The notes: generated from the sequence alone by a model not told the origin. A stretch of DNA of 64,000 nt from Patescibacteria group bacterium (GCA_022705905.1 JAKJDO010000001.1:28692-92691); one strand, 5' to 3'. Positions 1,861 to 62,135 are shown, counted from the first letter of the stretch. Program-made: numbers and translations.

Positions 1861-2391
1861 TTAAAAACAATTTGGATCATTCATGCACTGCTGCAGCCCA
1901 CTAGGGACTTCTTCAAAAGTAGTTTCTGTCCAAATATCTGAAAAACTCCAACTGCTCCACCATTCAGAAAAGGACCATCCGCCGCCCGATCCAGAGCTAG
2001 AACTAGTGTCAACTGCGCCAGAACCGAATGGTATGGCATTAAATACAAAATATGTTATGGAATAAGCGGCTACGATAATAACTAAGCCAATCACGGCTTT
2101 AGTTATTGTGTCTTTAGCCTTAGTTACTTTTTGTTCATCGCCGCTGGCCGTCATCCAATTGAAGCCGGCATAAATTATAAGAATAACAAAAATTATGCCC
2201 AATATGCTTAAAAACCCCTGGATAACAGCCGCCATAATTGACCCTACATTTTCTGTCGTGCTAAAACCGCTGCGGCTGACAAAGCGATCATATTGAGTGT
2301 CAGCTAAAACCGCATTAAATAAAAACAAGCTCAAAACAAAAAGAAAAATAAAAATTTTTAACTTAATTTTATTGTTTTTGATAGTAAGCAT
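1861..2391 (-). CDS. VirB2/TrbC-like (T4SS-type) pilin paralog 1. It has a signal peptide, a variable ectodomain, two TM helices and a Trp/Ser-rich Cys-containing C-terminal tail.
   Basis: Core LSILGIIFVILIIYAGFNWMTASGDEQKVTKAKDTITKAVIGLVIIVAAYSI is shared by all seven tandem genes. Confidence 0.6.
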   Translation of the reverse strand: MLTIKNNKIKLKIFIFLFVLSLFLFNAVLADTQYDRFVSRSGFSTTENVGSIMAAVIQGFLSILGIIFVILIIYAGFNWMTASGDEQKVTKAKDTITKAVIGLVIIVAAYSITYFVFNAIPFGSGAVDTSSSSGSGGGWSFSEWWSSWSFSDIWTETTFEEVPSGLQQCMNDPNCF

Positions 2392-2400
2392 AAAAAATTG

Positions 2401-2787
2401 TTAATTTTGTCTAGACATCATAATAACGCCAACCACCAATTGGCCAATGGCGTAAGCGCCGGCTGTAATTATCAGGCCGATTATGGCGCGCTGGATGGTG
2501 CTTTTAGCCTTGTCTACTTTAGAGTTATCTCCGGCCGCCACCATCCAATTATAACCGCCATACAAGATTAAAACTGTAAAAATTATGCCTAATAATGAAA
2601 ATAAAACTTTAACAATGTCGCCGGCCATTTCAGCGGCCGTATATTCCGTCGCGGTCTTATAACCGCTGCTTGACTGCACCTTTTCCAGCTTATTTAACGC
2701 GGCGCTTTGCGCAAACACAAAATAAGGCAATATTAAAATTGCCACCAGAAACAAAAGATAAAAACTATTTTTTATTTTTTTACGCAT
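2401..2787 (-). CDS. VirB2/TrbC-like pilin paralog 2.
   Basis: Signal peptide plus the conserved core LLGIIFTVLILYGGYNWMVAAGDNSKVDKAKSTIQRAIIGLIITAGAYAI. Confidence 0.6.
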   Translation of the reverse strand: MRKKIKNSFYLLFLVAILILPYFVFAQSAALNKLEKVQSSSGYKTATEYTAAEMAGDIVKVLFSLLGIIFTVLILYGGYNWMVAAGDNSKVDKAKSTIQRAIIGLIITAGAYAIGQLVVGVIMMSRQN

Positions 2788-2822
2788 GATTTTAACTAAA
2801 TAATTAATAGACGCTCACTTTT

Positions 2823-3254
2823 TTAAGAAGTTAAAGAGCGTTCATAGGGCGCCACTATATTCATAACTATAAAATAAGTAATGGCATAGGCGGCAACCAC
2901 GATAACCAGGCCGATAACCGCCTCAGTTATTAAATCCTTACCCTTGGCCACCTGCTGCTCCTTGCCCATGGCTGTCATCCATAAATAACCGCCGTAAACT
3001 ATTAAACAAATAAATATTATCCCCAAAAATGATAAAAATATATTTATTATTCTGGCAACAACAAATTCCGGTGTCGTCCCTGTCTGATAGCCGCTGGCTG
3101 CCCTGGTGTAGCCAAAAGGCGTTTCCAGACTGACGCTAAAAGCGTCTTTCAAATTAATGGCCTGCGCCGCCGAACCGAACAAAAAACATATAAAAACTAT
3201 AAAGATGATGTAGCTAAAACTTCTCTTCATAATTGCTAAAATCAATATGATCAA
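2823..3254 (-). CDS. VirB2/TrbC-like pilin paralog 3.
   Basis: Conserved core FLGIIFICLIVYGGYLWMTAMGKEQQVAKGKDLITEAVIGLVIVVAAYAI. Confidence 0.6.
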   Translation of the reverse strand: MIILILAIMKRSFSYIIFIVFICFLFGSAAQAINLKDAFSVSLETPFGYTRAASGYQTGTTPEFVVARIINIFLSFLGIIFICLIVYGGYLWMTAMGKEQQVAKGKDLITEAVIGLVIVVAAYAITYFIVMNIVAPYERSLTS

Positions 3255-3299
3255 AAAAAGTCACCGAAATTTTTAAAATTTTATGATTGATGGCCTGCT

Positions 3300-3770
3300 C
3301 TACTGGGAGGTCTGGGTGGTGACAGTAGAAGAATCAAAGGAAATAATGCCGGTATCAATAGCGCTAATTATAAAATAACTAATAGCGTAAGCGGCCATAA
3401 CTATTATCAGGCCGATTAAAGAATTAGTTAATATATCTTTTGCTTTTTGAACTTTTTGCTGATCGCCCTTGGCTGTCATCCAAATAAAGCCGGCATAAAC
3501 CATCAAAATAAGAAAAATCACTCCTAAAAAAGAAAGTAAGGTTTGAATAACACTGCCGGAAATTTGAATTAATTTGTTCTCTGCCTGGTCAAGCTGCAAA
3601 GAGTTGTCATACCCCGCTCCGCCGCCAACTTTTTTCAAGCCGTTATTAAACAGGGTGGCGGAATTATCGGCTGCAAAAGACACTGAGGCAATTTGACTCG
3701 TGACAAAAATGCAAAAGAATATAACGGCTATAAATTTTAATTTTATAAATAACCTTTTATTTTTATTCAT
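3300..3770 (-). CDS. VirB2/TrbC-like pilin paralog 4.
   Basis: Conserved core FLGVIFLILMVYAGFIWMTAKGDQQKVQKAKDILTNSLIGLIIVMAAYAI. Confidence 0.6.
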   Translation of the reverse strand: MNKNKRLFIKLKFIAVIFFCIFVTSQIASVSFAADNSATLFNNGLKKVGGGAGYDNSLQLDQAENKLIQISGSVIQTLLSFLGVIFLILMVYAGFIWMTAKGDQQKVQKAKDILTNSLIGLIIVMAAYAISYFIISAIDTGIISFDSSTVTTQTSQ

Positions 3771-3775
3771 GGTGA

Positions 3776-4168
3776 TTAGCTGGTTATAACACTGCCGACA
3801 TAAGCGGTAATAGCATAAGCGGCTATAACTATTATTAAGCCGACAGCTGCGGCTTCCATTATATCTTTAGCCGTTTGCACGTTTTGTTGATTGCCGCGAG
3901 CTAACATCCAGGTAAAGCCGCCATAAATCATTAAAATTAAAAACAAAACGCCGATAAAAGACAGGCCGACGCCTATCGCGTTACCTATGGTCGTTGAGAT
4001 ATCTTTTTCCGGCAAGGTGCCATAAGCTTTTTCTGAAGATTGAGTTAAGCCGCTAAGAGCGCTGTCAACTGCTTTGCCCAGCGCGCTGTCAGCAATGCCA
4101 TAGCAAACAAAAAAAGCCAAAAAAATGGCTAAAAATGCTATCGTCTTTTTATATAAACCATTGCCCAT
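3776..4168 (-). CDS. VirB2/TrbC-like pilin paralog 5.
   Basis: Conserved core FIGVLFLILMIYGGFTWMLARGNQQNVQTAKDIMEAAAVGLIIVIAAYAI. Confidence 0.6.
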   Translation of the reverse strand: MGNGLYKKTIAFLAIFLAFFVCYGIADSALGKAVDSALSGLTQSSEKAYGTLPEKDISTTIGNAIGVGLSFIGVLFLILMIYGGFTWMLARGNQQNVQTAKDIMEAAAVGLIIVIAAYAITAYVGSVITS

Positions 4169-12866: not shown

Positions 12867-12908
12867 TTAATTTTGATTTTTGATTTTTAAATTTTGAACT
12901 TTTAATAT

Positions 12909-13262
12909 ATGTCTCATCGCTTAGAACAAATAAATGAACTATTGCGCTCCGAATTATCTAACTTGCTAGCTAGAGAAGTGCCGCTAGAGAATGGGATGGT
13001 TACTATTACCTATGTTAAGTGCGGTGCTGATTTAAAAAATGCCACTATCGGTATCTCCGTCCTGCCGGAAGGACTGGCCGGCACGGCCCTAGAACAATTA
13101 AAAAAAATAAGCGGGCAATTGGCTCGAGAACTAAACAAGAAGATCAAAATAAAATTCATCCCCAGATTTTATTGGGAAATAGACAGCTTGGAAAGAAACG
13201 CCATAGAAATTGATAGAGCCGTCAGAGAGGCTAGGCGCAACGATGAACAATATGATAGGTGA
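12909..13262 (+). CDS. rbfA: Ribosome-binding factor A.
   Basis: 117 aa. The motif RSELSNLLAREV and the position directly after infB both fit RbfA. Confidence 0.8.
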   Translation: MSHRLEQINELLRSELSNLLAREVPLENGMVTITYVKCGADLKNATIGISVLPEGLAGTALEQLKKISGQLARELNKKIKIKFIPRFYWEIDSLERNAIEIDRAVREARRNDEQYDR

Positions 13263-26090: not shown

Positions 26091-27779
26091 TTATAACAAT
26101 TTTTTAACCATATAACTGTTCTCTAAATCATAACCAAATTTTCTATAATAGTCTCGTACCCCGACCCCGGAAATAACCACCATTTTTTTATAGCCGTTCT
26201 TCTTCGCGATTTTCTCTGCTTCAGACAATAGTTTCCTGCCAAGGCCAGAATGCTGCGTTTTCTTCTTGCTGCCCACAGGCATTAGCTCACCATAAACATG
26301 CAGTTCTCTAATCAGCGCTGTTTTTTTCATCTCGAGCAAAGCGAGAGATCTCTTAGATTCTGTCTCTGACTTTAAGGGATTTCTCTCGTCACTTTGTGAC
26401 GATCGAAATGACAAATTATTTTTTGGCAAACGTAATCGGCAAAAGCCATACAACGTTTTTCCGTCTTTACTATTATAGCTAATGAAATATTCTTCGCCGC
26501 CTGACGCCTTGTAACTTTCAACTTTCAACTTTGCAACTTTTAGCCTCTTCTCTCGCGCCTCTCGGCAGCGAATACATCTACACTCCACACCACGGTCTTT
26601 CATAACCTGGCGTAGATTCGTAATCATATTGCCAGCAATGATTGATTCTGACGGAATGTCGCGTATCAATCTAATTATTCTTACATATTCCGGCGTTACT
26701 TGTTTACATTTTATGATCAGCTCTTCCAGCCTCTTGTTCGCATACGGTTTGTATTCGCCTTGTTTCCACCATTTATATAGCTCACTGCCTTTGGTCACGA
26801 CTGTCGGATAAAATTTAATTTGATCTGGCTGAAACCGTTCATCAGCAAATAACTGCTGATACATTTTAAAGTCTTTAGCTGGCGTTGAACCAGGCAGTCC
26901 TGGCATGATGTGATATGTAACTTTAAAACCGAAATCTTTTAGCAATTTTGTCGCCCGCGTAATGTCGGTTACATTGCTGCCTCGTTTATTTAATTTTAAA
27001 ATTTTATCATCAATAGCTTGCACGCCAATTTCCAAACGCGTACATCCTAATTCCCGCATTTGCCACAATTCTTTCTCGTTTATATAATCCGGTCTAGTTT
27101 CAAGTGTAATCCCTATTATCTTATATTTAGCTTTTTCATTTTTTTTCTGTTCTTTTAACAACTCTCTCTTTAGTTTTTTAATTTTTAGTTTTGAGTTGTA
27201 ATTTTGACTTTTGAATTTTGACTTTTGAATTTTATTAAATTCATTTGCCGCTTCAAAGCATTGCCAAACATACCAATATTTATACTCTCTCGGCAGGTAG
27301 CTCCATGTTCCACCAATAACAATCAATTCAATTTTTGTTGGTTCGTGGCCATTATTAACTAGCGCACGCAAACGATCTTGTACTTGAACGTAAGGATTAA
27401 ACTCGCAACGAATCGCGCGCATAACCGCTGGTTCATTAGACAAATAACTTTGCGGTACATTTTTTTCCGTCGGACAATAAGTGCACTTTCCTGGACAAGG
27501 ATACGGCATAGTTAAAACCGCTACCGGTGCGATACCCGACAAAGTCCTAATACTACGTTTGCGTAAAATCCTCAGTAAATCATTATTAGGCTGCCTTAAT
27601 TGTTTTTTAACCTGATTTTGATAGTATGACAAAATTTCGGAATTAAGAAAAATTTTAATCCCGTACTTTTTAGCAATTTTACGCTTTACCAACATTAAGT
27701 CATTGCGCGTTTTTATCTTCGCTCTTAGCAGCTCTGCAATGGCCCGTTGCTTGTTTTTGGTGTTTTTTGATGATATCAT
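26091..27779 (-). CDS. Elp3-family tRNA uridine(34) acetyltransferase homolog (radical SAM plus C-terminal GNAT).
   Basis: Radical-SAM Cys cluster YPCPGKCTYCP, a C-terminal GNAT region (QHSGLGRKLL), and a length of 562 aa. Confidence 0.7.
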   Translation of the reverse strand: MISSKNTKNKQRAIAELLRAKIKTRNDLMLVKRKIAKKYGIKIFLNSEILSYYQNQVKKQLRQPNNDLLRILRKRSIRTLSGIAPVAVLTMPYPCPGKCTYCPTEKNVPQSYLSNEPAVMRAIRCEFNPYVQVQDRLRALVNNGHEPTKIELIVIGGTWSYLPREYKYWYVWQCFEAANEFNKIQKSKFKSQNYNSKLKIKKLKRELLKEQKKNEKAKYKIIGITLETRPDYINEKELWQMRELGCTRLEIGVQAIDDKILKLNKRGSNVTDITRATKLLKDFGFKVTYHIMPGLPGSTPAKDFKMYQQLFADERFQPDQIKFYPTVVTKGSELYKWWKQGEYKPYANKRLEELIIKCKQVTPEYVRIIRLIRDIPSESIIAGNMITNLRQVMKDRGVECRCIRCREAREKRLKVAKLKVESYKASGGEEYFISYNSKDGKTLYGFCRLRLPKNNLSFRSSQSDERNPLKSETESKRSLALLEMKKTALIRELHVYGELMPVGSKKKTQHSGLGRKLLSEAEKIAKKNGYKKMVVISGVGVRDYYRKFGYDLENSYMVKKLL

Positions 27780-35020: not shown

Positions 35021-36007
35021 CTATATTTTTGCAATCATTAAACTCAAGGCCGCTTTAAAATCTCCTTGTCCACTTTTTATTTTTCTATCGACCTCCAATA
35101 AATCGCTAAAAATCTTCTTTAGTAAATCCGAAGAAAAACCCCCAACCTGACCAGAGCATTTTTGCACTACGAAGGGATGAAAGTGCAATTGGCTAGTGAT
35201 CTTGCGCTGACTCATGCCTGCGTCTATAGCCTCTTTAACTTGCAGCAGTATTTTAAACTGGCGAATGATCATTGTTAGTAAATATTGTTCAGCCACACCA
35301 GCCTCCATTTCTTGCTCTAGCAATTTTATCGCTTGCGCTTTATTTTTATTACCAATAGCATCGGATAACGCAAAAATATTTTCATCAATTTTACCACGGC
35401 TTAAGGCCTCGACATCTTCCTCACTAATTACTGCTTCACTTTCTGGCAAAAGTTGCGCTTTCTTAAAATTTATTAGCTTTTCAATTTCATTATTAAGTTG
35501 CCATAAATCACTGCCAAACATGCTGGCTAGATTTAACACTGCTTGTGGCTTAACTTTAGCTTCACGAGCTGTAAATTCTTTTTTTATCCAAACTGCCGTT
35601 TCCGTGTTCGATAATTTTTTAAAATTCTGAGCATACTTCTGCTCGCTCAAAAATTTAAATAATTTATTTTTTTCCAATTTAGCGCCACTGGTTTCGTCCC
35701 AAAAAATAATTATATTATCATCTGCCTTGTCTTTACTCTTTGCTGTTTTTTTGAAATAGTCAAAAACTTTTTCTAGTATTTTCTCGCTCTTATTGCTAAA
35801 AATATTTTCTACGACAATCATGCGCTTGCGCGCAAAAAGCGAACGCGCGCCGATTGCCTCGCTTAATCCTTCGATCATTAAACTTTCACCAGCCAAACTA
35901 ACAATACCATTGCCAGTAGGATCAACTTCGCGGATGAACTTATCTTTCAATTCTTTTAGTTTTTGGCGGCTACGAAATGTATCTTCGCCGTATAAAAATA
36001 TAATCAT
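35021..36007 (-). CDS. holA: DNA polymerase III delta subunit.
   Basis: N-terminal IIFLYGEDTF..., AAA-like fold, and a length of 328 aa. Confidence 0.7.
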   Translation of the reverse strand: MIIFLYGEDTFRSRQKLKELKDKFIREVDPTGNGIVSLAGESLMIEGLSEAIGARSLFARKRMIVVENIFSNKSEKILEKVFDYFKKTAKSKDKADDNIIIFWDETSGAKLEKNKLFKFLSEQKYAQNFKKLSNTETAVWIKKEFTAREAKVKPQAVLNLASMFGSDLWQLNNEIEKLINFKKAQLLPESEAVISEEDVEALSRGKIDENIFALSDAIGNKNKAQAIKLLEQEMEAGVAEQYLLTMIIRQFKILLQVKEAIDAGMSQRKITSQLHFHPFVVQKCSGQVGGFSSDLLKKIFSDLLEVDRKIKSGQGDFKAALSLMIAKI

Positions 36008-36016
36008 ACCTGTTCG

Positions 36017-36057
36017 TCTCCTCTCCTTGTTTGAAGGGGGAGGTTGGGGTGGAGTTT
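36017..36057. repeat. G-rich palindromic repeat: ctcctctccttg-tttg-aagggggaggttggggtggag followed by tttt. It belongs to the same family as 40476-40535, 61143-61182 and 63968-63991.
   Basis: Recurring G-tract arm (GAGGG-Y-GGGG-TG-AGG) paired with a C-rich arm. Here it lies in the holA 5' UTR. Confidence 0.5.
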
Positions 36058-38582: not shown

Positions 38583-41423
38583 TTATTTTAGCTCTCCCCA
38601 ACTATCTCCCGTATTAGCATCAACTACCACCGGCACTTTTAACTTTAACACTTCTTCCATTATCTTTTTAATCTTCTCAGACAATTCCTGTACTTTAGCC
38701 GATTTTATTTCAAAAAGCAATTCGTCGTGTACTTGTAAAATCATTTTTACATCTTCCGTTTTATATTCTTTTTTTATCATCTTCTCAATTTCAATCATGG
38801 CGATCTTTATCATATCCGCAGCTGTGCCTTGCAGCGGTGTGTTGATAGCCATGCGCTCGGCCGCTTTTTTAACCATAACTACTGACGAATTTATTTCCGG
38901 TAAATAACGCCGGCGGCCAAATAGCGTTTCCGAATAACCATTCTCCCGCGCTTCATCCACTACTTCTTCCACCCATTTCTTTATGCCTTGATAGGCTTTA
39001 AAATAATTGGCAATAAATTCACGCGCTCTGTCATAAGAAATGTCAGCCGTCTGCGACAAACCGTGCGGACCTTGACCGTATAAAATACCGAAATTAGTTG
39101 CCTTAGCTTCACGGCGCATTTCTTTCGTAACCTCCTCTAATTTAACGCCGTTAATAGCGGCGGCAGTGGCTATATGAATATCTTCCCCTTTTTTAAAAGC
39201 CTCGATCATTTTCTTATCGCCTGACATATGCGCCGCTAACCGTAACTCAATCTGTGAATAATCTAAACTTAATAATTTACATCCCGAGCAAGCAACAAAA
39301 GCCTTCCGAATTTCATTGCCCAATTCGGTGCGCACCGGAATATTCTGCAAATTCGGTTCGGTTGAAGATAAACGACCAGTCGCCGTAATCGTTTGATTAA
39401 AGCTGGTATGCAAGCGACCATCTTTTTTGCTAATTAAATCCGGCAAGGCATCGGCATAAGTTGAACTTAATTTTGCTAACTCGCGATATTCTTGAACTAG
39501 CCTAATAATCGGATGGGCGTCTTTTAATTTATCTAATTCATCAGCAGCGGTTGAAAATCCGGTTTTATTCTTCCCGATATTTAAAGACGAAATTTCTAAT
39601 TTTTCAAACAAAATTTCGCGTAACTGCTGAGTTGACTTAATGTTAAACTCTATGCCAGCTAATTTATATATTTTTTTCTCTAATGTCTTTATTCTTTTGT
39701 CTATTTCACGGCTTAATTCTACCAAAACATTTTTGTCGAGTAACACGCCTTTGTCTTCCATATCGGCCAGCACCGTCACAAGCGGCATTTCAATTTCATA
39801 AAATAATTTTTCCATTTTCTGTTCGCGCAATTGTTTGCTTAATGCATTTACGAGCCGCCTAGTAAAATCAGCGTCTTCACAGGAATACAAGCTTAACTTC
39901 TCAGCTTCAACTTCGTTAAAATTTTTCTTATCGCGCCCCTTGCCGAGCAAATCTTCTTTTGATATTTTTTCAAAACCTAATTCCGTAAACGTCACGGCGT
40001 CTAAATTATGCTGGCGTGTACCCGGATTTAACAAATAAGAAGCGATCATCGTATCAAAAGCAACGTTAGCTACATTAATGCCGCTGCTTTTCATTACTCG
40101 ATAATCAAACTTAATATTATGACCGTATTTCTCAATCTTGGGATTCTCAAAAATCGACCGTAAATTTTCTAGCCAAGGATGAATTTTATTCTCTTCTTTT
40201 TTGTTAAAATTGAAAAGAGTGTTTTGCTTGTCATCCTGAGCGCTAGCGAAGGATCTCGTTTTTTTCACCACGCTTACAAAATACGCCTCGCCGTCTTTCC
40301 AGGAAAAACTAATACCTAATAAATTTGCAATCAGGGGATCAAAAGAATCAGTTTCTGTGTCAAAAACAAATCTGCTTTGTTTTTTAAGTTTGCTTAAAAA
40401 ATCTAAAAACTTTTTCTCGTCATCGACTAAAATATATTTAAATTCTTTTTTATTCCTCTCAAATTTATCAAAAATCTCTCCTCCTTTCTCTCGCCCCCTC
40501 CCTTTTTGAAAGGGAGGGGCGGGGAGGGTTTTAGCGCTGCCTGAAAACAAACTATGAACGCGCGGCAAAAGCGACTTAAACTCTAAATCGCTAAACAATT
40601 TTACAACTTCTTCTTGCTTGATATTGCCAAACCGAGCATCGTCTAAATTAAACTTAATTTTTACATCACGTTTAATCGTTGCTAAACTTTTTGACATCAA
40701 CGCATCTTTTTTATGCTCTTTCAATAATTCTCTAATTCTATCTTTGATTTTAGCTGAATTAATATTTTTATAAACTCCATCTAAGGTTTTAAATTCAATT
40801 AATAATTCACTCGCGGTTTTCTCGCCAATGCCTTTTACGCCCGGAATATTATCGCTCGGATCGCCGCGCAAAGCCTTATAATCAATCATCTGCTCCGGTT
40901 TTAAACTAAAGCGCGCTTTCACTGTTCTAGCATCATACAAAATACTGTCAGACAAACCACGGCTCATCGTATAAACTTTAGTATTATCATCAACTAACTG
41001 CAAAGTGTCCATATCACCAGTTACAATAATCTTTTCAATATCACCATCAACTCTGGCGGTAATCGTGCCGATTAAATCGTCAGCTTCAAAGCCAGCTTCA
41101 GCAAAAACAGGGATGGCAAAAGCTTCTGCTAATTCTTTAACACGCGGAATTTGCGTATATAAATCATCCGGCGCTTTAACGCGCGTCGCTTTATAATCTT
41201 TATATTCAATATGCCGGAAAGTCGGCCCAGCTTTATCTAAAGTTAAAACAACATAATCAGGCCTAAACTCTTTTAACGCTTTAAGTAAAACAGTCGCAAA
41301 ACCATAAACAGCATTAACCATCTCCCCTTTTTTAGTGGTCATAGTTGGCGGTAAAGCGTGAAAACTGCGATGTATCAGCGCATTTCCGTCAATTATTATC
41401 ATTTTTTCCTTTTTGCTGGTCAT
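38583..41423 (-). CDS. polA: DNA polymerase I (5'-3' exonuclease, 3'-5' exo-like and polymerase domains).
   Basis: N-terminal IIIDGNALIHRSFHA, exo motif FDTETDS, and polymerase motifs (DYSQIELR, QVHDELLFE). Confidence 0.9.
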   Translation of the reverse strand: MTSKKEKMIIIDGNALIHRSFHALPPTMTTKKGEMVNAVYGFATVLLKALKEFRPDYVVLTLDKAGPTFRHIEYKDYKATRVKAPDDLYTQIPRVKELAEAFAIPVFAEAGFEADDLIGTITARVDGDIEKIIVTGDMDTLQLVDDNTKVYTMSRGLSDSILYDARTVKARFSLKPEQMIDYKALRGDPSDNIPGVKGIGEKTASELLIEFKTLDGVYKNINSAKIKDRIRELLKEHKKDALMSKSLATIKRDVKIKFNLDDARFGNIKQEEVVKLFSDLEFKSLLPRVHSLFSGSAKTLPAPPFQKGRGREKGGEIFDKFERNKKEFKYILVDDEKKFLDFLSKLKKQSRFVFDTETDSFDPLIANLLGISFSWKDGEAYFVSVVKKTRSFASAQDDKQNTLFNFNKKEENKIHPWLENLRSIFENPKIEKYGHNIKFDYRVMKSSGINVANVAFDTMIASYLLNPGTRQHNLDAVTFTELGFEKISKEDLLGKGRDKKNFNEVEAEKLSLYSCEDADFTRRLVNALSKQLREQKMEKLFYEIEMPLVTVLADMEDKGVLLDKNVLVELSREIDKRIKTLEKKIYKLAGIEFNIKSTQQLREILFEKLEISSLNIGKNKTGFSTAADELDKLKDAHPIIRLVQEYRELAKLSSTYADALPDLISKKDGRLHTSFNQTITATGRLSSTEPNLQNIPVRTELGNEIRKAFVACSGCKLLSLDYSQIELRLAAHMSGDKKMIEAFKKGEDIHIATAAAINGVKLEEVTKEMRREAKATNFGILYGQGPHGLSQTADISYDRAREFIANYFKAYQGIKKWVEEVVDEARENGYSETLFGRRRYLPEINSSVVMVKKAAERMAINTPLQGTAADMIKIAMIEIEKMIKKEYKTEDVKMILQVHDELLFEIKSAKVQELSEKIKKIMEEVLKLKVPVVVDANTGDSWGELK
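40230..40258. repeat. Solo arm of the GTCATYCTGAGCG...CGAAGRATCTCG repeat family, in-frame inside polA (encodes ..RSFASAQDDK..).
   Basis: Same 29-mer family as 41528-41577, 51801-51866 and 62016-62135. Confidence 0.5.
40476..40535. repeat. G/C-rich palindromic repeat inside polA: cgccccctcccttt-ttga-aagggaggggcggggaggg followed by tttt. It encodes ..LPAPPFQKGRGREKGGE..
   Basis: Hairpin-forming, compositionally aberrant, and the same family as the holA-UTR and yidD-yidC elements. Confidence 0.5.
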
Positions 41424-41437
41424 TGTTTTTTTCTTTT

Positions 41438-41462
41438 GTCATTCCCGCGCAGGCGGAAATCC
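41438..41462. repeat. Hairpin repeat GTCATTCCCGCG-cag-GCGGAAATCC (family of three copies: 41438, 51161, 56478).
   Basis: Near-identical 24-mers with an 8-bp stem attcccgc/gcgggaat, each just upstream of a gene start (polA here). Confidence 0.5.
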
Positions 41463-41527
41463 ATTTCCTTATTCATTCTACTCCTATTACACCACATAAA
41501 AACCCTTAAAACAAGCCCATCCTCTTT

Positions 41528-41577
41528 GTCATTCTGAGCGTCTGCCTTGCCTGGCAGGCGGGTTAGCGAAGAATTTC
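41528..41577. repeat. Solo copy of the GTCATTCTGAGCG..GCGAAGAATTTC repeat with an internal palindrome gccttgcctggcaggc.
   Basis: The family appears in four places in the window. Confidence 0.45.
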
Positions 41578-41688
41578 GTCTCCTTGCCTTTTACCTAACC
41601 AGGGTATAAAATTAAAGTGTAAAAAGCCAGATTATACCTATTATTTTTTATTGTTTTACTCGCTAGTTTTAAACAAAAAAACAACAAA

Positions 41689-42214
41689 TTCGCATATAAC
41701 TAGTTAAGTGGAATTTTTTTGCTCGCCTATAAGCGCAACATTTATTAAAACCAGATAAACAATTAACTACACGGAACTTCACGACATCAGAATCATCAAA
41801 CAGGACGAAAGAGGTATAATTTATGATTGTGGCAAATCCAGTTTTATTTCAAGAAAGAAAGGAACTATAAGTGCCAATCATAAACATGAAGATCCCGAAA
41901 TTGTTTACCTGGTTAAAGGAGAAGTGGAATTAACAATTGGTGATGAAACCCAAATTGTAAAAGCTCCAATCATGTTCAAGACTGATTCTAATGTTTATCA
42001 CAAATTGGTTGCGCTTACTGATATAGAACTTGTTATTGATAGAGACGGCGAGTAAAAAACTCAAGCCACGCTGCGCTCTCGTTCCGCTTCGCTTCAATCG
42101 GATCACTTAACAAGGGATATATGGTTCGGGGCTCGGCTCGCCCCTCACCCAAATTTTTCTTCCACTTCGTTCCAGAAAAACTTCGTATATACCTGATGTT
42201 ATGACGCCATCGCT
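41689..42214 (+). mobile_element. Candidate small insertion element of about 525 bp. It is bounded by TTCGCATATAACTAGTTA (left) and GTTATGACGCCATCGCT (right). The same two ends are directly juxtaposed at 29064-29094, which looks like an empty site. The cargo is a frameshifted cupin gene.
   Basis: An exact 18-mer is shared between 29064-29081 and 41689-41706. The 13-mer tgaYgccatcgct is shared between 29082-29094 and 42202-42214. Confidence 0.4.
41823..42055 (+). pseudogene. Cupin-domain gene interrupted by a frameshift. MIVANPVLFQERKEL* is followed in the +1 frame by ..SANHKHEDPEIVYLVKGEVELTIGDETQIV..DRDGE.
   Basis: RBS plus ATG, then a stop after 15 codons. The downstream frame has the cupin-like H.H..E...G pattern. 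The frame break is at an A-rich run. Confidence 0.4.
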
Positions 42215-42250
42215 ATCTTTATAGCTATTTAATTATTAATTAATAAAACA

Positions 42251-42678: not shown

Positions 42679-42918
42679 TTATATAAGATGTTTTTTGGTA
42701 AAAGCGTAGCCTGAGCTTGATTTTAAATATTTTTCAAAACTATATGCCTTTTGTTTTTCAACAAAAGCAGAATACCAAACCAGAATATATGGTCGTTTTA
42801 TATTTGAATATCTGGTTTTTCCAGAATTGTGTTCATGTATTCTCCGCTTTAAATCAGATGTCGCCCCTATATATCGGCTACGATCTTTTTCGCTTTGAAG
42901 AATATAAACGTAATACAT
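42679..42918 (-). CDS. GIY-YIG nuclease-family small protein (YhbQ/UPF0213-like).
   Basis: MYYVYILQSEKDRSRYIGATSDLKRRIHEHN is a GIY-x10-YIG motif. It is a paralog of the 50700-51017 gene. Confidence 0.65.
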   Translation of the reverse strand: MYYVYILQSEKDRSRYIGATSDLKRRIHEHNSGKTRYSNIKRPYILVWYSAFVEKQKAYSFEKYLKSSSGYAFTKKHLI

Positions 42919-43035: not shown

Positions 43036-43111
43036 TGGTGGACCGTACCGGGATCGAACCGGTCACCTCCTGCGTGCAAAGCAGGCACTCTACCAGATGA
43101 GCTAACGGCCC
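43036..43111 (-). tRNA. tRNA-Ala (anticodon TGC), CCA encoded.
   Basis: Manual fold. Acceptor GGGCCGT/ACGGTCC, anticodon loop TTTGCAC, T-loop GGTTCGATCC. Confidence 0.8.
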
Positions 43112-50149: not shown

Positions 50150-50707
50150 TTAATCGTTACGATTGAATAACACCATATTATATCTTCCACCCTGTTTTGT
50201 CAAGTCCTGCTCAACGCCCAAATTCAAACCCTCTCTGGTCTGTAAATGTTTTACAAAATCTCTGATTGTTTCAGCGCCCTTCTCTGGAAATTGCTTTTCG
50301 CGCCCTTTAAGCATCAGCTCTATCTTCAATTTATCGCCTCTTTTTAAAAATTTCTCTGCCTGCTCAGCGCGCATTTCTGAATCATGCTGGCTAATTCTAA
50401 CTGACAGTCTAACGCATTTTAATTCCACTTTTTTCTGCTGAACTTTCTGCTTATGCGCCTTCTTTTCCTGCTCGTATTTAAATTGACCGTAATCCATTAT
50501 CTTAACCACCGGACATTCGCCTTTAGGATTAACTTCAACTAGATCCGATTCTGCTTCACGCGCCATTGCTAATGCTTCTTGAATACTAATCCGACCTCGA
50601 TTTTCTCCATTTTCATCAATCAGAAAAACCTCGGGTACACGAATTTGTTCGTTGACCCTAAATCGTTTTTCTTCGGTTGGTTTCGCTTTTTTCCAAGTTC
50701 TACGCAT
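50150..50707 (-). CDS. infC: Translation initiation factor IF-3.
   Basis: INEQIRVPEVFLIDENGE.. and the infC-rpmI-rplT gene order. Confidence 0.85.
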   Translation of the reverse strand: MRRTWKKAKPTEEKRFRVNEQIRVPEVFLIDENGENRGRISIQEALAMAREAESDLVEVNPKGECPVVKIMDYGQFKYEQEKKAHKQKVQQKKVELKCVRLSVRISQHDSEMRAEQAEKFLKRGDKLKIELMLKGREKQFPEKGAETIRDFVKHLQTREGLNLGVEQDLTKQGGRYNMVLFNRND

Positions 50708-51017
50708 AAAATGAGTGGCTACCCGCCAATTGGGCGGGCTCTCGACCTTGGCAAGGTCGCCCTTTAACTAAAGTGTTATTTAAAATCTTTTGGAGATCTT
50801 CTCTGCCGTGTCCAGTCTTAAAAAATCTTTCTCTTTTTCTTGCATCAATCTCATCTATAAACGCTTCGGCAAATATCAATTTGAACAATCTTCTATTTCT
50901 AGTAGATTCATTCGCTCCGTCGTTATGTTTTTTAATTCTTTCATCTAAATTTTCTGTGTAACCAATATATAATTTTTTATCTTTCAAACTTCTTAAGATG
51001 TAAACGTAATAAAACAT
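50700..51017 (-). CDS. GIY-YIG nuclease-family small protein. Its C-terminal tail reads through a tRNA-Gly-derived repeat.
   Basis: MFYYVYILRSLKDKKLYIGYTENLDERIKKHN motif. The gene is wedged between tRNA-Gly and infC. Confidence 0.6.
   Translation of the reverse strand: MFYYVYILRSLKDKKLYIGYTENLDERIKKHNDGANESTRNRRLFKLIFAEAFIDEIDARKRERFFKTGHGREDLQKILNNTLVKGRPCQGREPAQLAGSHSFYA
50739..50760. repeat. 22-nt exact duplicate of the tRNA-Gly anticodon-arm region (ctctcgaccttggcaaggtcgc; tRNA copy at 51061-51082) plus an adjacent pseudo-T-arm (cccgcc-aattg-ggcggg).
   Basis: Exact match seen in the sequence. It lies at the distal end of the GIY-YIG gene. Confidence 0.55.
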
Positions 51018-51032
51018 CTTTTTTATATTTCA

Positions 51033-51107
51033 TGGAGCGGGTAACGGGAATTGAACCCGTCTCTCGACCTTGGCAAGGTCGCATAATAGCCACTATACGA
51101 TACCCGC
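51033..51107 (-). tRNA. tRNA-Gly (anticodon GCC), CCA encoded.
   Basis: Manual fold. Acceptor GCGGGTA/TACCCGC, anticodon stem CGACC/GGTCG with loop TTGCCAA, T-loop GGTTCAATTCC. Confidence 0.8.
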
Positions 51108-51160
51108 CTACGTTCTGCTTCGACAGAACTCCGGCGGGGCAAGTCCGCCAGTTTTTCCGT

Positions 51161-51185
51161 GTCATTCCCGCGAAAGCGGGAATCC
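51161..51185. repeat. Hairpin repeat GTCATTCCCGCG-aaa-GCGGGAATCC (family copy 2).
   Basis: Perfect 8-bp stem with a GAAA loop. A GC hairpin ggcgg-ggcaagt-ccgcc plus T-run precedes it at 51132-51155. Confidence 0.5.
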
Positions 51186-51323
51186 AGAAAATTGTAGGAA
51201 ATAAAATTCTATACGAAAAAAGTTAAGAAATCAAAGATTCTTAACAATAATTATTATAGAGTAAAACTATTTTTTTGGCAAGGGCTTGAAAATAAGATAA
51301 AATTATGTTATAGTCCGAAAGAT

Positions 51324-51794
51324 ATGTCAGCCTTAGCAGTCAACAAAAGAGCCAATTTTGATTATGAAATAACCGACAAACATGAAGCCGGCATCGTTCT
51401 TTTTGGCCATGAAGCCAAATCAATCAAAACCGGGCACATCAGCCTAAAAGGGGCTTTTGTTACCGTAAAAAATACAACCAAAAACCTGCCGGAATTATAT
51501 CTGATCAACGCGCACATACCTCTTTATGCTAAAGCTAGCACTGTCAAATCATATGATCCTACGCGACCCAGAAAATTACTCCTGCACAAAAATGAAATAA
51601 ACAAATTAATTGGCAAGAAACAAGAACAAGGATTAACCTTGGTGCCGATCAAAATTTATTCTAAGCACAGTTTGATAAAACTAGAATTCGGTGTCGGCCG
51701 TGGCAAAAAAAAGTTCGACAAAAGAGAGGTGATAAAAAAACGCGAGGTTGATAAACAAATTAGAACTTTGACAAAAACGAAAGCAAGAAAATAA
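51324..51794 (+). CDS. smpB: SsrA-binding protein.
   Basis: MSALAVNKRANFDYEI..GIVLFGHEAKSIK. The gene is followed by tmRNA. Confidence 0.85.
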   Translation: MSALAVNKRANFDYEITDKHEAGIVLFGHEAKSIKTGHISLKGAFVTVKNTTKNLPELYLINAHIPLYAKASTVKSYDPTRPRKLLLHKNEINKLIGKKQEQGLTLVPIKIYSKHSLIKLEFGVGRGKKKFDKREVIKKREVDKQIRTLTKTKARK

Positions 51795-51800
51795 CCTACT

Positions 51801-51866
51801 GTCATCCTGAACGAAGTGAAGGATCTCGCAATTAAAAACAAGATTCTTCGCTTTGCTCAGAATGAC
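51801..51866. repeat. MITE-like inverted-repeat element. Arm gtcatcctgaacgaagtgaaggatctcg, 12-nt spacer, inverted arm agattcttcgctttgctcagaatgac. It lies between smpB and ssrA.
   Basis: The two arms are imperfect reverse complements and belong to the GTCATYCTGAGCG family. Confidence 0.5.
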
Positions 51867-51874
51867 AAAAATAC

Positions 51875-52254
51875 GGGGATGATAGGATTCGATAATAATG
51901 CCATCTAAAAACATTCGGAACGTGCCTGACACCACGCAAATCTGTCAAAAACAATAAGTGCAAAAAACTTATTAGCAAAAGCTATGGACGCTTTCCGCGC
52001 ACCAGCTTTCGCTCCTGTTCTTGCCTAAAAACGCAAGAGCCATCCGTCCAGTCAGGCCTGATAGCTGGTCACGGGTGTCATAACATCGGGCTTAGTTTAT
52101 AAAGACGTTCTGATTTATAGACAAAATTAAAGAACTAGCTATTATCGGTTTTGTTTAGTTTTCTACGTTAGTGGTTAAATTCCAAACTAAACTATTTCCG
52201 TAAATATGTTTTCTAGATTATTATTAGACGCGGGTTCAACTCCCGCCATCTCCA
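51875..52254 (+). ncRNA. ssrA: tmRNA (ssrA).
   Basis: 5' GGGGATGATAGGATTCGA and 3' GACGCGGGTTCAACTCCCGCCATCTCCA form the tRNA-like domain. An internal tag ORF (..AKAMDAFRAPAFAPVLA*) spans about 51975-52026. The gene is immediately downstream of smpB. Confidence 0.85.
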
Positions 52255-52270
52255 CTCGGTTTTAAAAAAG

Positions 52271-55231: not shown

Positions 55232-56488
55232 TTATTCTTGGACTTCAGCTTCTGGCTCTGGCGTTACTTCTTCTACGACCGGCTTCTTTTCTTCCGCTTC
55301 TTCAGCTTCCACTTTTTTACTTTTTTCGTCTTCGGTTTTTTCAACAATATCAATTTTCCAACCAGTCAATTTTGCCGCCAATCTCGCGTTTTGTCCGCCT
55401 TTGCCGATCGCTAAAGATAATTGCTCGGAAGACACTATCACAATCGCTTTCTTTTCCGCTTCATCTATTTCAATATTAATAATTTTAGCAGGCGATAAAG
55501 AGTTGCTAATATATTTGACAGGATCTTCATCGTAAGCAATAATGTCAACTTTCTCTCCGCCTAGTTCCTGGATGATCGTTTGGATGCGCGCGCCTCTTTG
55601 TCCCACACAAGAGCCGATCGGATCGACGTTGTCGGAATCGGTCCAAACTGCGACTTTTGAACGCGAACCAGCCTCTCGAGCCACACCTTTTATTTCTATT
55701 AAACCGTTGGAAATTTCCGGAATTTCCAGATAAAAAACTTTCTTTAAAATTTCATCCGAAGTTCTGGACAAAACAATCTCCGGTCCCTTAGTTTTTGAAC
55801 TTACTTCTTTAACAAAAACCTTGATGCGATCTCCGGTATTGTATCGCTCGCCTGGAATTTGCTCGTCAGGCGGCAAAACACCGACTGACTTGCCTAGGTC
55901 AACTAAAACGACCCTGCCTTCGCGTCTTTGCACAACACCGCTAACAACTTCATGCTCTTTGTCTTTAAAATCGGCAAATACCATTTCTCTTTCCGCTTCT
56001 CGCAGTCTCTGAATAATAACTTGCTTGGCGGTTTGAGCAGCCATACGACCATAAGACTCAGGTACTTCTAACTTCGTTTTTATTTCATCGCCGATTTTAG
56101 CTGTTTTTTTAATTAACTTGGCCTCAGTAATTTGCACTTCAGTTTTAGGGTTAAACCTTCTTTTTTCTTCTTCACCTTCTGCGCCCTCAGCTGAAGCCGT
56201 CTCGTTAGTTACAGCCGCTATCTCTTCCTCACCCTCTTCAATTATTTCTTCTTCTGGCATATCTTCAACCACAGTTTTTACGTCGTAAACTTTTGATTTG
56301 CCGGTCTCTGGATCAAACTCCACTTTAATATTTTGATTTTTTTTGCCGTAGTCCTTGCGATAAGCAGCGGCTAAAGCTGATTCAACTGTTTCAATAACGG
56401 CTTCGTAGCTTAGCCCCTTTTCTTCGCAAATTTGTCTAATAGCTTTTAATATTTCTGACATAATTTTATATTCTAGTGTCATTCCCAC
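55232..56488 (-). CDS. nusA: Transcription termination/antitermination factor NusA with an acidic insert.
   Basis: N-terminal domain (MSEILKAIRQICEEKGL), S1 and two KH domains. Confidence 0.85.
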   Translation of the reverse strand: MGMTLEYKIMSEILKAIRQICEEKGLSYEAVIETVESALAAAYRKDYGKKNQNIKVEFDPETGKSKVYDVKTVVEDMPEEEIIEEGEEEIAAVTNETASAEGAEGEEEKRRFNPKTEVQITEAKLIKKTAKIGDEIKTKLEVPESYGRMAAQTAKQVIIQRLREAEREMVFADFKDKEHEVVSGVVQRREGRVVLVDLGKSVGVLPPDEQIPGERYNTGDRIKVFVKEVSSKTKGPEIVLSRTSDEILKKVFYLEIPEISNGLIEIKGVAREAGSRSKVAVWTDSDNVDPIGSCVGQRGARIQTIIQELGGEKVDIIAYDEDPVKYISNSLSPAKIINIEIDEAEKKAIVIVSSEQLSLAIGKGGQNARLAAKLTGWKIDIVEKTEDEKSKKVEAEEAEEKKPVVEEVTPEPEAEVQE

Positions 56489-56501
56489 GCAAGCGGGAAT
56501 C
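56478..56501. repeat. Hairpin repeat GTCATTCCCACG-caa-GCGGGAATC (family copy 3), overlapping the nusA start region.
   Basis: Same family as 41438 and 51161. Confidence 0.5.
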
Positions 56502-61142: not shown

Positions 61143-61182
61143 CGCCCTCGCTTTGTTTGGAGGAGAGGGTCGGGGTGAGGTT
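61143..61182. repeat. G-rich repeat copy between yidD and yidC: cgccctcgctttgtttggaggagagggtcggggtgaggtt.
   Basis: Family with 36017, 40476 and 63968. This copy contains the yidC RBS. Confidence 0.45.
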
Positions 61183-62015: not shown

Positions 62016-62135
62016 ATGTCATCCTGAGGCTGTAGGCCGAAGGATCTCGGGTGTCTTGCAAGTTGTTCGTGTTTGCAAAACAACCAGAGATTCTTCGCTG
62101 CCTGCCTGCCGGCCGGCAGGCGCTCAGAATGACAT
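62016..62135. repeat. MITE-like inverted-repeat element of 120 bp. The arms are atgtcatcctgagg..gccgaaggatctcggg and cagagattcttcgc..gctcagaatgacat, each with an inner palindrome. Its right end overlaps the murI ATG.
   Basis: The arms are reverse complements of each other and belong to the GTCATYCTGAGCG family. The central part contains ttgcaa palindromes. Confidence 0.5.

Follow-up and report, generated by a model that had tools for sequence, protein, structure and literature searches.

The gene for DNA polymerase I (polA) of a tiny, uncultured Patescibacteria group bacterium (Parcubacteria) carries two different small palindromic repeats within its reading frame. It lies in a stretch of 64,000 nucleotides (GCA_022705905.1 JAKJDO010000001.1:28692-92691; about 37% G+C), which is referred to here as the window. 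The features at polA, to which the two repeats belong as element 1 and element 2, are as follows.

38583..41423, minus strand: polA (DNA polymerase I), a single intact open reading frame (ORF) of 946 amino acids (aa) with Pfam domains and exonuclease motifs
40229..40258, plus strand: element 1, a single TGTC-tagged repetitive extragenic palindromic (REP) unit, T-GTC / ATCCT-GA-GC / GCTA / GC-GA-AGGAT / CTCG
40476..40535, plus strand: element 2, a G/C-rich palindrome and triplex motif (BoxC/TM-like) including its pyrimidine-rich left flank; fold z = -3.7, -4.1

The polA gene and its product

A first-pass annotation, made from the sequence alone, had proposed that polA holds both repeats in frame, and the intact ORF and the Pfam domains bear this out. 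In the protein Pfam recognizes 5'-3' exonuclease domains (aa 7-270), the 3'-5' exonuclease domain PF01612 (aa 330-532) and a family A polymerase domain (aa 565-944). Alignment to the Klenow fragment places the start of the Klenow-like part at aa 329 and shows that the exonuclease motifs FDTETDS (Exo I), NIKFD (Exo II) and YSCEDAD are conserved; these are the counterparts of E. coli Klenow D355/E357, D424 and Y497/D501. PolA is 100% identical to P0001, DNA polymerase I of 'Parcubacteria group bacterium ADurb.Bin316', and both repeat peptides are retained in two 946-aa cluster variants.

The genome is metagenome-assembled and repeats can mislead assemblers, which raises the question of an assembly or binning artefact in the form of repeat-induced chimeric joins inside polA. 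We regard this as scarcely credible. The identical 946-aa PolA occurs on five contigs of several sources (NCBI, JGI, Logan, ENA), the longest of 1.06 Mb, neither element disrupts the reading frame or the order of the domains, and independent relatives have homologous segments.

Element 1, a REP unit in the exonuclease domain

A repeat arm encoding RSFASAQDDK had been proposed at 40230-40258, and GTCATCCTGAGCGCTAGCGAAGGATCTCG is found at precisely these positions, where the polA strand reads (T)RSFASAQDD(K), aa 389-398. The arm had also been thought to lie in the linker between domains. In this the annotation was mistaken: both Pfam and the Klenow alignment place it inside PF01612, in the loop between Exo I and Exo II, and this loop is 15 residues longer than its E. 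coli counterpart.

Members of the CGTC REP superfamily have an end tag that is often TGTC, stems of 8-9 bp opening with A-T pairs, loops of 4-5 nt and a CCA tail, and occur mostly as dimers (PMC3733652). The superfamily includes elements of Rickettsia conorii (RPE-6 in family CGTC-1 and RPE-4 in CGTC-4) as well as the Neisseria dRS3 element, again CGTC-1 (Di Nocera, De Gregorio & Rocco 2013, PMC3733652). In element 1 the TGTC tag is found at 40229-40232, the nine stem positions open with AT...AT and comprise five Watson-Crick pairs, a tandem G.A and two G-C pairs, and the loop is the 4-nt GCTA, but the tail is CTC. The lone unit folds weakly (-3.7 kcal/mol, z = -0.35), and three of its six frames are free of stops. 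By its tag, and by the dispersed, multi-copy and partly inverted arrangement of its family described below, element 1 is assigned to the CGTC/TGTC-tagged REP superfamily that includes Rickettsia RPE-4 and RPE-6. The resemblance to palindromic elements of Rickettsia that had been suggested at the outset is thus closer than first thought. The polA unit nonetheless represents a variant, ATCCTGAGCG-NAG-CGAAGGAT (ATYCTGAGCG-NAG-CGAAGRAT), with a CT or CTC tail instead of CCA, which could be matched to none of the four published CGTC families when compared with them by description only.

Element 2, a predicted triplex motif in the linker

Element 2 is located in the linker between the 5'-nuclease and Klenow-like parts. 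Its plus strand reads CTCTCCTCCTTTCTCT-CG-CCCCCTCCCTTT-TTG-AAAGGGAGGGG-C-GGGGAGGG-TTTT, and the polA strand encodes TLPAPPFQKGRGREKGGE (aa ~297-316). It had been described as a GC-rich perfect palindrome spanning 40476-40535. The palindrome and its peptide are indeed there, but only 40495-40519 is perfect, with an 11-bp stem and a 3-nt loop, and the outer CG/CG pairs require a 1-nt bulge. The gggaggg noted as trailing the palindrome is present as well; it is not incidental, in that GGGGAGGG exactly mirrors GGGAGGGG. Three blocks can thus be told apart.

40495..40502, plus strand: pyrimidine domain CCCCTCCC of the triplex motif
40512..40519, plus strand: purine domain GGGAGGGG, Watson-Crick partner of the pyrimidine domain
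40521..40528, plus strand: third (reverse-Hoogsteen) domain GGGGAGGG, an exact mirror of the purine domain from which it is separated by a 1-nt loop

With 9 nt between the first two blocks, the arrangement yields 8/8 perfect triads over 40495-40528, which is the three-block order of a class II motif. This 8-triad motif is unique in the window and was found in none of 100 random windows. The ViennaRNA folds behind the z values given above model the hairpin only and not the triplex. On the order of its blocks, element 2 is predicted to be a class II intrastrand triplex motif of the BoxC/PIT/TM type. Like BoxC, PIT and TMECO (Holder et al. 2015, PMC4666352) it is built from a pyrimidine block, a loop, a purine block, a short loop and a mirror G-rich block, and its family shares with them multiple copies that are sometimes paired, the commonness of degenerate copies and the lack of a known associated transposase. 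The strict TMECO pattern CCCTCNCCC-N3-6-GGGNGAGGG-N3-GGGNGAGGG has 9-nt blocks and a 3-nt second loop, whereas in the polA copy the blocks differ in sequence and are 8 nt long, and the second loop is a single nucleotide; the orthologue P0003 and a copy elsewhere in the window (61143-61180) come closer to that pattern. Five of the six frames of element 2 are free of stops.

The coincidental alternative, that the two segments are ordinary fast-evolving low-complexity loops of PolA which match repeats by chance or composition, finds some backing in the length variability of both sites across the 120 best PolA homologues, as aligned with MAFFT, and in the insignificant hairpin stability of the lone REP unit. 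It is all the same very hard to reconcile with the sequence statistics, and we give it hardly any credence. The left 13-mer of element 1 has six matches at no more than two mismatches in the window against 0.32 expected, a number reached in 0/100 shuffles, and the matches to the halves of the REP family include an exact 13-mer and an exact 12-mer in a genome of 37% G+C. Together with the 8-triad mirror-palindrome architecture that never occurs in random windows, the TGTC tag and CTC tail, which are the same in copies from other phyla, speak against coincidence.

Copies in the window and in other phyla

Both families had been expected to occur between genes also, and they do. For the REP family, six places besides polA were found.

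41438..41462, plus strand: REP unit of CGTC-1-like type between genes, imperfect in its stem, 15 nt upstream of the polA start codon
41527..41578, plus strand: TGTC REP unit of the long form, intergenic, whose inner hairpin is CTGCC...GGCAG
51160..51186, plus strand: canonical CGTC-1-type REP with TGTC tag, 8-bp stem ATTCCCGC/GCGGGAAT, GAAA loop and CCA tail; z = -4.7
51800..51866, no strand assigned: inverted dimer of TGTC REP units; z = -4.3
56477..56501, plus strand: CGTC-1-type REP unit at the very 5' edge of an ORF from the mechanical listing
62017..62133, no strand assigned: inverted dimer of long-form TGTC REP units, 117 nt, a hairpin like that of a miniature inverted-repeat transposable element (MITE); z = -6.8

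In total the window holds nine units, which are spread over seven places and include two inverted dimers, and the polA unit is the only one that is clearly coding. A T precedes all nine units. The unit at 51160-51186 is intergenic and adjoins a tRNA gene, and that at 56477-56501 is probably intergenic as well. A sister variant, TGTCATTCCCGCGAAAGCGGGAATCC, is located at 41438, 51161 and 56478. The family is in the window what CGTC REPs are known to be: dispersed, multi-copy, mainly intergenic and in part arranged as inverted dimers. Rfam at gathering thresholds matched only the transfer-messenger RNA (tmRNA) and tRNA genes and none of the repeats.

The 827 nt directly 5' of polA (41424-42250) hold no ORF of at least 60 aa. 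What they do contain is two of the REP units, a short ORF fragment at 41924-42055, possibly a decayed gene, and a G/C-rich patch around 42125-42150. The dimer at 51800-51866 occupies the entire gap between an ORF ending at 51794 and the tmRNA gene (51875-52257), and may be a terminator or processing signal for one of the two.

An exact-pattern scan for the polA REP variant, with one genome per species, gave at least 120 stretches, from which 149 copies were analysed; the results that follow apply to the matches listed. These come from Acidobacteriota, Chloroflexota, Nitrospirota, Bacteroidota, Firmicutes, Planctomycetota and Verrucomicrobiota, and also from Rickettsiales, Cyanobacteria, Saccharibacteria, Gracilibacteria, Komeilibacteria and others. 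The variable stem pair covaries, being C-G in 86 copies, T-A in 59 and mismatched in four (Fisher p = 1.7e-36), and the stem variant ATGCT/AGCAT is seen in the locus L006; covarying stems are a property of CGTC REPs. Long open frames are avoided: a stop-free run of 200 aa or more surrounds 27% of the copies, compared to 78% of random positions. In most copies outside the window the loop is NAG (3 nt) and the tail CT, and the commonest 4-nt prefixes all end in T; the TGTC tag and the CTC tail of the polA unit recur identically in copies from other phyla.

The triplex family has two relatives between genes of the window.

36017..36054, plus strand: degenerate intergenic triplex-family copy TCTCCTCTCCTT..AAGGGGGAGG-TT-GGGGTGGAG, 10 nt upstream of the start of ORF 35021-36007 (minus strand)
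61143..61180, plus strand: degenerate intergenic triplex-family copy sharing the 19-mer GGAGAGGGTCGGGGTGAGG with E. coli TMECO no. 12

Their folds (z = 0 and -1.2) are weaker than that of the polA copy (z = -3.7 and -4.1). All three blocks of the polA copy, CCCCTCCC/GGGAGGGG/GGGGAGGG, recur in a Planctomycetes contig, where the second loop is TTA. On the mRNA strand of ORF 35021-36007 the first of the two copies puts AAGGAGAGGAG about 10 nt before the ATG, and because of this position it may supply the ribosome-binding site of that ORF.

Probable turnover of the repeats in orthologous polA genes

Most of the 120 aligned homologues lack both peptide segments, which supports the proposal that these are lineage-specific repeat DNA in frame. 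Peptides shared by orthologues and lacking nucleotide similarity to the repeats were not seen; in codon-level alignments the segments of close relatives match the repeat families at the nucleotide level, beyond the peptide. A neighbour-joining tree of PolA from 905 gap-free columns has the topology (P0008,(P0009,((P0001,P0002),(P0004,P0005),(P0003,(P0006,P0007))))), and the state of both sites varies across it.

In the exonuclease loop, P0003 has a decayed REP copy (CGCGATCTTTTGCTAAAGCTAAAGATGAC) and P0008 a longer intact REP variant (tGTCATCCTGAGGAGCGAAGCGACGTGAGGATcc), while in P0002, P0004 and P0005 the place is taken by an older heptamer-type sequence (KSKVES). The loop peptide of P0007, LPTGRQARNDK, looks like the long form at 62086-62133 as read from the peptide only. 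Other G/C-rich hairpins occupy the same loop in three more distant orthologues, and in L129 (P0033-type) a perfect palindrome, CGGAACTCGGTTCCGGGTGCCCGGAACCGAGTTCCG, encoding SELGSGCPEPSSGS, lies a few codons past the site used in the window. The exonuclease loop is in this sense a general hot spot. A peptide similar to SELGSGCPEPSSGS is found in P0039.

In most orthologues this loop reads V(K/E)SxK(S/L)KV(K/E)S, encoded by heptamer repeats of which AAAGTCAAAAGTTGAAAGT is an example. The window has similar heptamers (TTTTGAC/CTTTCAA) between its genes at 26509-26548, 27202-27229 and 12871-12910, and since such heptamers occur intergenically the 'ancestral' loop may itself be repeat-derived.

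In the linker, P0002 and P0004 have decayed palindrome copies at the same position and with the same loop (TTTCAAAAAGGGA). Intact triplex variants are present in P0003 (CCCTCTCC..GGAGAGGG-CT-GGGGTGAGG) and P0009 (CCCTCCC..GGGGAGGG-TTA-GGGAGGG), which differ from the P0001 copy and from one another, and P0005 and P0008 have no palindrome. Neither insertion is therefore a single clean event, for in sister lineages both sites are occupied by elements that are intact, decayed or different.

At third codon positions P0001 and its sister P0002 are only 54% identical, so neutral sites are far diverged. Both P0001 copies nevertheless match their family consensus perfectly, in contrast to the eroded orthologous copies of P0002 (palindrome, 61% nucleotide identity to P0001) and P0003 (REP, 78%). 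Protein-level selection does not explain the intact copies in P0001, since the peptide of the linker element is only 33% identical between P0001 and P0002 over 18 codons, compared to 84% for the whole protein. Either the intact copies are younger than the speciation, by re-insertion at the same site or conversion there from copies elsewhere in the genome, or their DNA structure is constrained in some lineages.

Probable tolerance of the insertions by the protein

An AlphaFold2 model of PolA, built with 60 homologues, has a mean predicted local distance difference test score (pLDDT) of 84.7. The only internal segments with pLDDT <50 are aa 296-317, 388-403, 407-411 and 676-688. The first corresponds to nt 40473-40538 and thereby to the triplex element, and the second and third to the REP and its loop; both of these repeat segments are without predicted secondary structure. 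The two segments accordingly conform to the in-frame, fold-compatible placement known from Rickettsia palindromic elements (RPEs): they are absent from most orthologues, modelled with pLDDT <50 and accompanied by intact catalytic motifs.

That both segments are in frame in a conserved gene of an essential type, and identical in the two cluster variants, could also be taken to mean that the inserted peptides are adaptive features of the protein, such as a flexible linker or an interaction loop, whose likeness to repeat DNA reflects their origin only. The low conservation of the linker peptide relative to the rest of PolA, the predicted disorder and the commonness of orthologues without the segments make this a very improbable explanation.

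A third possibility is that the elements are kept since the DNA or RNA structure itself acts, be it as a pause for replication or transcription, as a recombination hot spot at a domain boundary, as an mRNA hairpin or as an internal ribosome-binding site modulating expression of the Klenow-like part. The triplex copy in polA is the best preserved of the window, its intergenic relatives being degenerate, and three lineages keep intact yet differing linker palindromes despite near-saturated neutral sites. Moreover, AAAGGAGGAGAG lies directly 3' of the hairpin on the coding strand, and the intergenic copy at 36017-36054 puts AAGGAGAGGAG about 10 nt before a start codon. On the other hand, the palindrome is decayed in P0002 and P0004 and absent in P0005 and P0008, all of which have an intact polA, and TMECO/PIT of E. 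coli showed neither promoter nor terminator activity nor an in vivo triplex footprint (PMC4666352). Taken together these observations render a structural function unlikely, although less so than an adaptive role of the peptides. An internal translation start after the linker hairpin was examined as a candidate of its own and is rejected, as no in-frame start lies at a workable distance from the internal GGAGG: an ATT follows after 4 nt, and the TTG is out of frame.

Origin and maintenance of the repeats

The explanation we find clearly the most probable is that two unrelated passenger DNA repeats are tolerated in frame in disordered loops of PolA, with recurrent turnover at two hot spots. Both families would spread or be copied as DNA. 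Copies would survive in polA for three reasons: they landed in segments not needed for folding (the linker between 5'-nuclease and Klenow-like parts and a surface loop of the 3'-5' exonuclease), the repeat sequences are largely without stop codons, and the net length change kept the reading frame. Selection would thus filter copies for frame and permissive location. Since sister lineages hold intact, decayed and different variants at the same positions, copies are thought to be gained or renewed at the two landing-pad sites and then to erode under AT-biased mutation.

Several observations weigh against this explanation. No clean empty site was found: the 90%-identity cluster members of P0001 and P0002 share length and segments, and a metagenome scan with the linker-exonuclease fragment gave 12 loci, of which the closest is of the P0002 type, and no clean empty site among them. 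Compared to P0002, the nearest orthologue without a REP, the REP segment amounts to a net gain of four codons and replaces part of the heptamer-type loop. What the data show is the identity and position of the elements, their absence from most orthologues, the nucleotide-level homology in relatives and the predicted disorder of the peptides they encode. For lack of an empty site and given this replacement, we infer insertion rather than observe it, and the same applies to neutrality for PolA function and to renewal by re-insertion or gene conversion. Neither polA element is flanked by a target-site duplication (flanks TTTTGCTT/TTTTTTTC and ...TTTCTCT/TTTTAGCG). No transposase or mobilising gene was identified, with window ORFs not screened for Y1 transposases, and a transposase for CGTC REPs (PMC3733652) or BoxC (PMC4666352) is not known in the literature. 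The repeat census covers 64 kb of a genome of ~1.06 Mb. Finally, the perfect preservation of both P0001 copies could reflect selection on DNA structure.

One may speculate further that the two disordered PolA sites are active, recurrent landing pads in this clade related to Parcubacteria and Falkowbacteria, with repeated re-insertion or copy-correction at the same codons, but we consider this rather doubtful. If true, it would imply a structure- or sequence-directed copying mechanism, still undescribed, in minimal genomes of the Candidate Phyla Radiation (CPR), and the in-frame triplex motif would be the first translated BoxC-type element.

Relation to known repeat families

The polA unit and its relatives share with CGTC REPs (PMC3733652) the unpaired TGTC end tag, the A-T/T-A opening of the stem, the short loop, the frequency of inverted dimers and a distribution that is mostly intergenic with a minority in frame in genes, notably those of replication and repair. 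The window copy TGTCATTCCCGCGAAAGCGGGAATCCA (51160-51186) fits CGTC-1 exactly in its 8-bp stem, 4-nt loop and CCA tail. Intragenic CGTC REPs are reported to encode VIPAKAGI, SFPRKRES, CHSRESGNP and LDSRFRGND (PMC3733652); short ORFs across the degenerate sister copy at 41438-41462 read VIPAQAEI, SFPRRRKS, CHSRAGGNP and RLRGND, so that this copy can encode peptides like those listed for R. conorii (VIPAxAxI, SFPRRR, CHSRxGGNP, RLRGND). REPs have already been reported inside replication and repair genes including that of DNA polymerase I (PMC3733652). In Rhodopseudomonas palustris DNA polymerase I (RPE_4821, aa 338-367; PMC3733652 supplement), a REP of the superfamily is likewise translated near the junction of 5'-nuclease and 3'-5' exonuclease, but it is a dimer, belongs to family CGTC-3 and resides in another phylum. 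The Patescibacteria/CPR are not among the host phyla reported in 2013.

With the RPEs (Ogata et al. 2000, 2002, as reviewed in PMC10969869), the polA elements share the nature of palindromic selfish DNA in conserved genes, the preserved frame and the fold-compatible sites. The classic RPE-1 is described there as ~100-150 bp long and specific to Rickettsia, while the polA units measure 30 nt and ~55 nt, belong to families found far beyond one genus and show same-site turnover in sister lineages. TMECO is reported only in Proteobacteria (PMC4666352) and differs from the polA copy, which lies in frame inside a CPR gene; in E. coli MG1655 it is always intergenic and unlinked to mobile elements (PMC4666352).

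GTAG REPs and REPINs with their REP-associated tyrosine transposase (RAYT) (PMC3116915; PMC3733652) are also short dispersed palindromes, often in inverted dimers. The window units differ from them in that they have no GTAG tag, and no RAYT gene was seen, a systematic search not having been made; unlike GTAG REPs, the CGTC class has no known dedicated transposase. The intergenic REP dimers have inverted ends as MITEs do, but the polA elements lack a flanking direct duplication and no parent insertion sequence element was seen, so they do not qualify as MITEs.

In-frame repeats such as those in polA are, as we read the comparison, an already known phenomenon, because they work like RPEs and the intragenic REPs of Di Nocera et al. 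New are the CPR host, a REP variant of many phyla, a BoxC-type motif translated in frame and the repeated occupation of two sites; the in-frame triplex motif is the less precedented part. No description of these repeats in Patescibacteria was found in the literature that was searched, and a search on the exact REP sequence and on REPs in Patescibacteria gave nothing specific.

Palindromic repeats that colonise essential genes in frame have mainly been known from Rickettsia and a small number of other groups. The polA copies extend this to a streamlined CPR genome of ~1 Mb, and the BoxC/triplex-type motif translated in the same gene does so as well. Sister polA genes with intact, decayed and different copies provide a natural time series for the spread, renewal and erosion of repeats that lack a transposase. 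Annotators who meet RSFASAQDD, PAPPFQKGRGR or similar peptides in CPR proteins should treat them as loops derived from repeats and not as functional motifs.

GIY-YIG genes and other repeats of the window

Small GIY-YIG nuclease genes were considered as mobilisers of the TGTC REPs. This idea is unsupported, as only 3/120 of the REP-selected loci among the matches listed have one. GIY-YIG genes 0-100 nt from REP units are seen in L006 (848-1464, a Parcubacteria relative), L039 (5747-6660, a Gracilibacteria metagenome-assembled genome (MAG)), L123 (3562-4456, Hymenobacter glaciei) and L119 (225-249, an alphaproteobacterial MAG). Both units that flank the gene in L006 have the rare stem variant ATGCT/AGCAT. 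With so few loci no association can be claimed, and the adjacency is noted as a lead. Among 35 database homologues of the GIY-YIG protein of the window, none had a REP-encoded tail.

The window itself has two such genes, 50700-51017 and 42679-42918, each immediately 3' of a tRNA gene (51036-51107 and 43039-43111, respectively), all four on the minus strand. In the first gene, the 3' end (~50735-50775) duplicates 22 nt from the anticodon arm of the neighbouring tRNA (GCGACCTTGCCAAGGTCGAGAG). Their arrangement suggests a tRNA-targeting mobile or integrated unit. The homologues P0139 and P0143 are extended at the N-terminus by sequence resembling translated tRNA genes.

At 2033-3955 a 170-nt unit occurs in five direct copies, which are 61-70% identical, spaced by 390-500 nt and probably represent a repeated protein domain.

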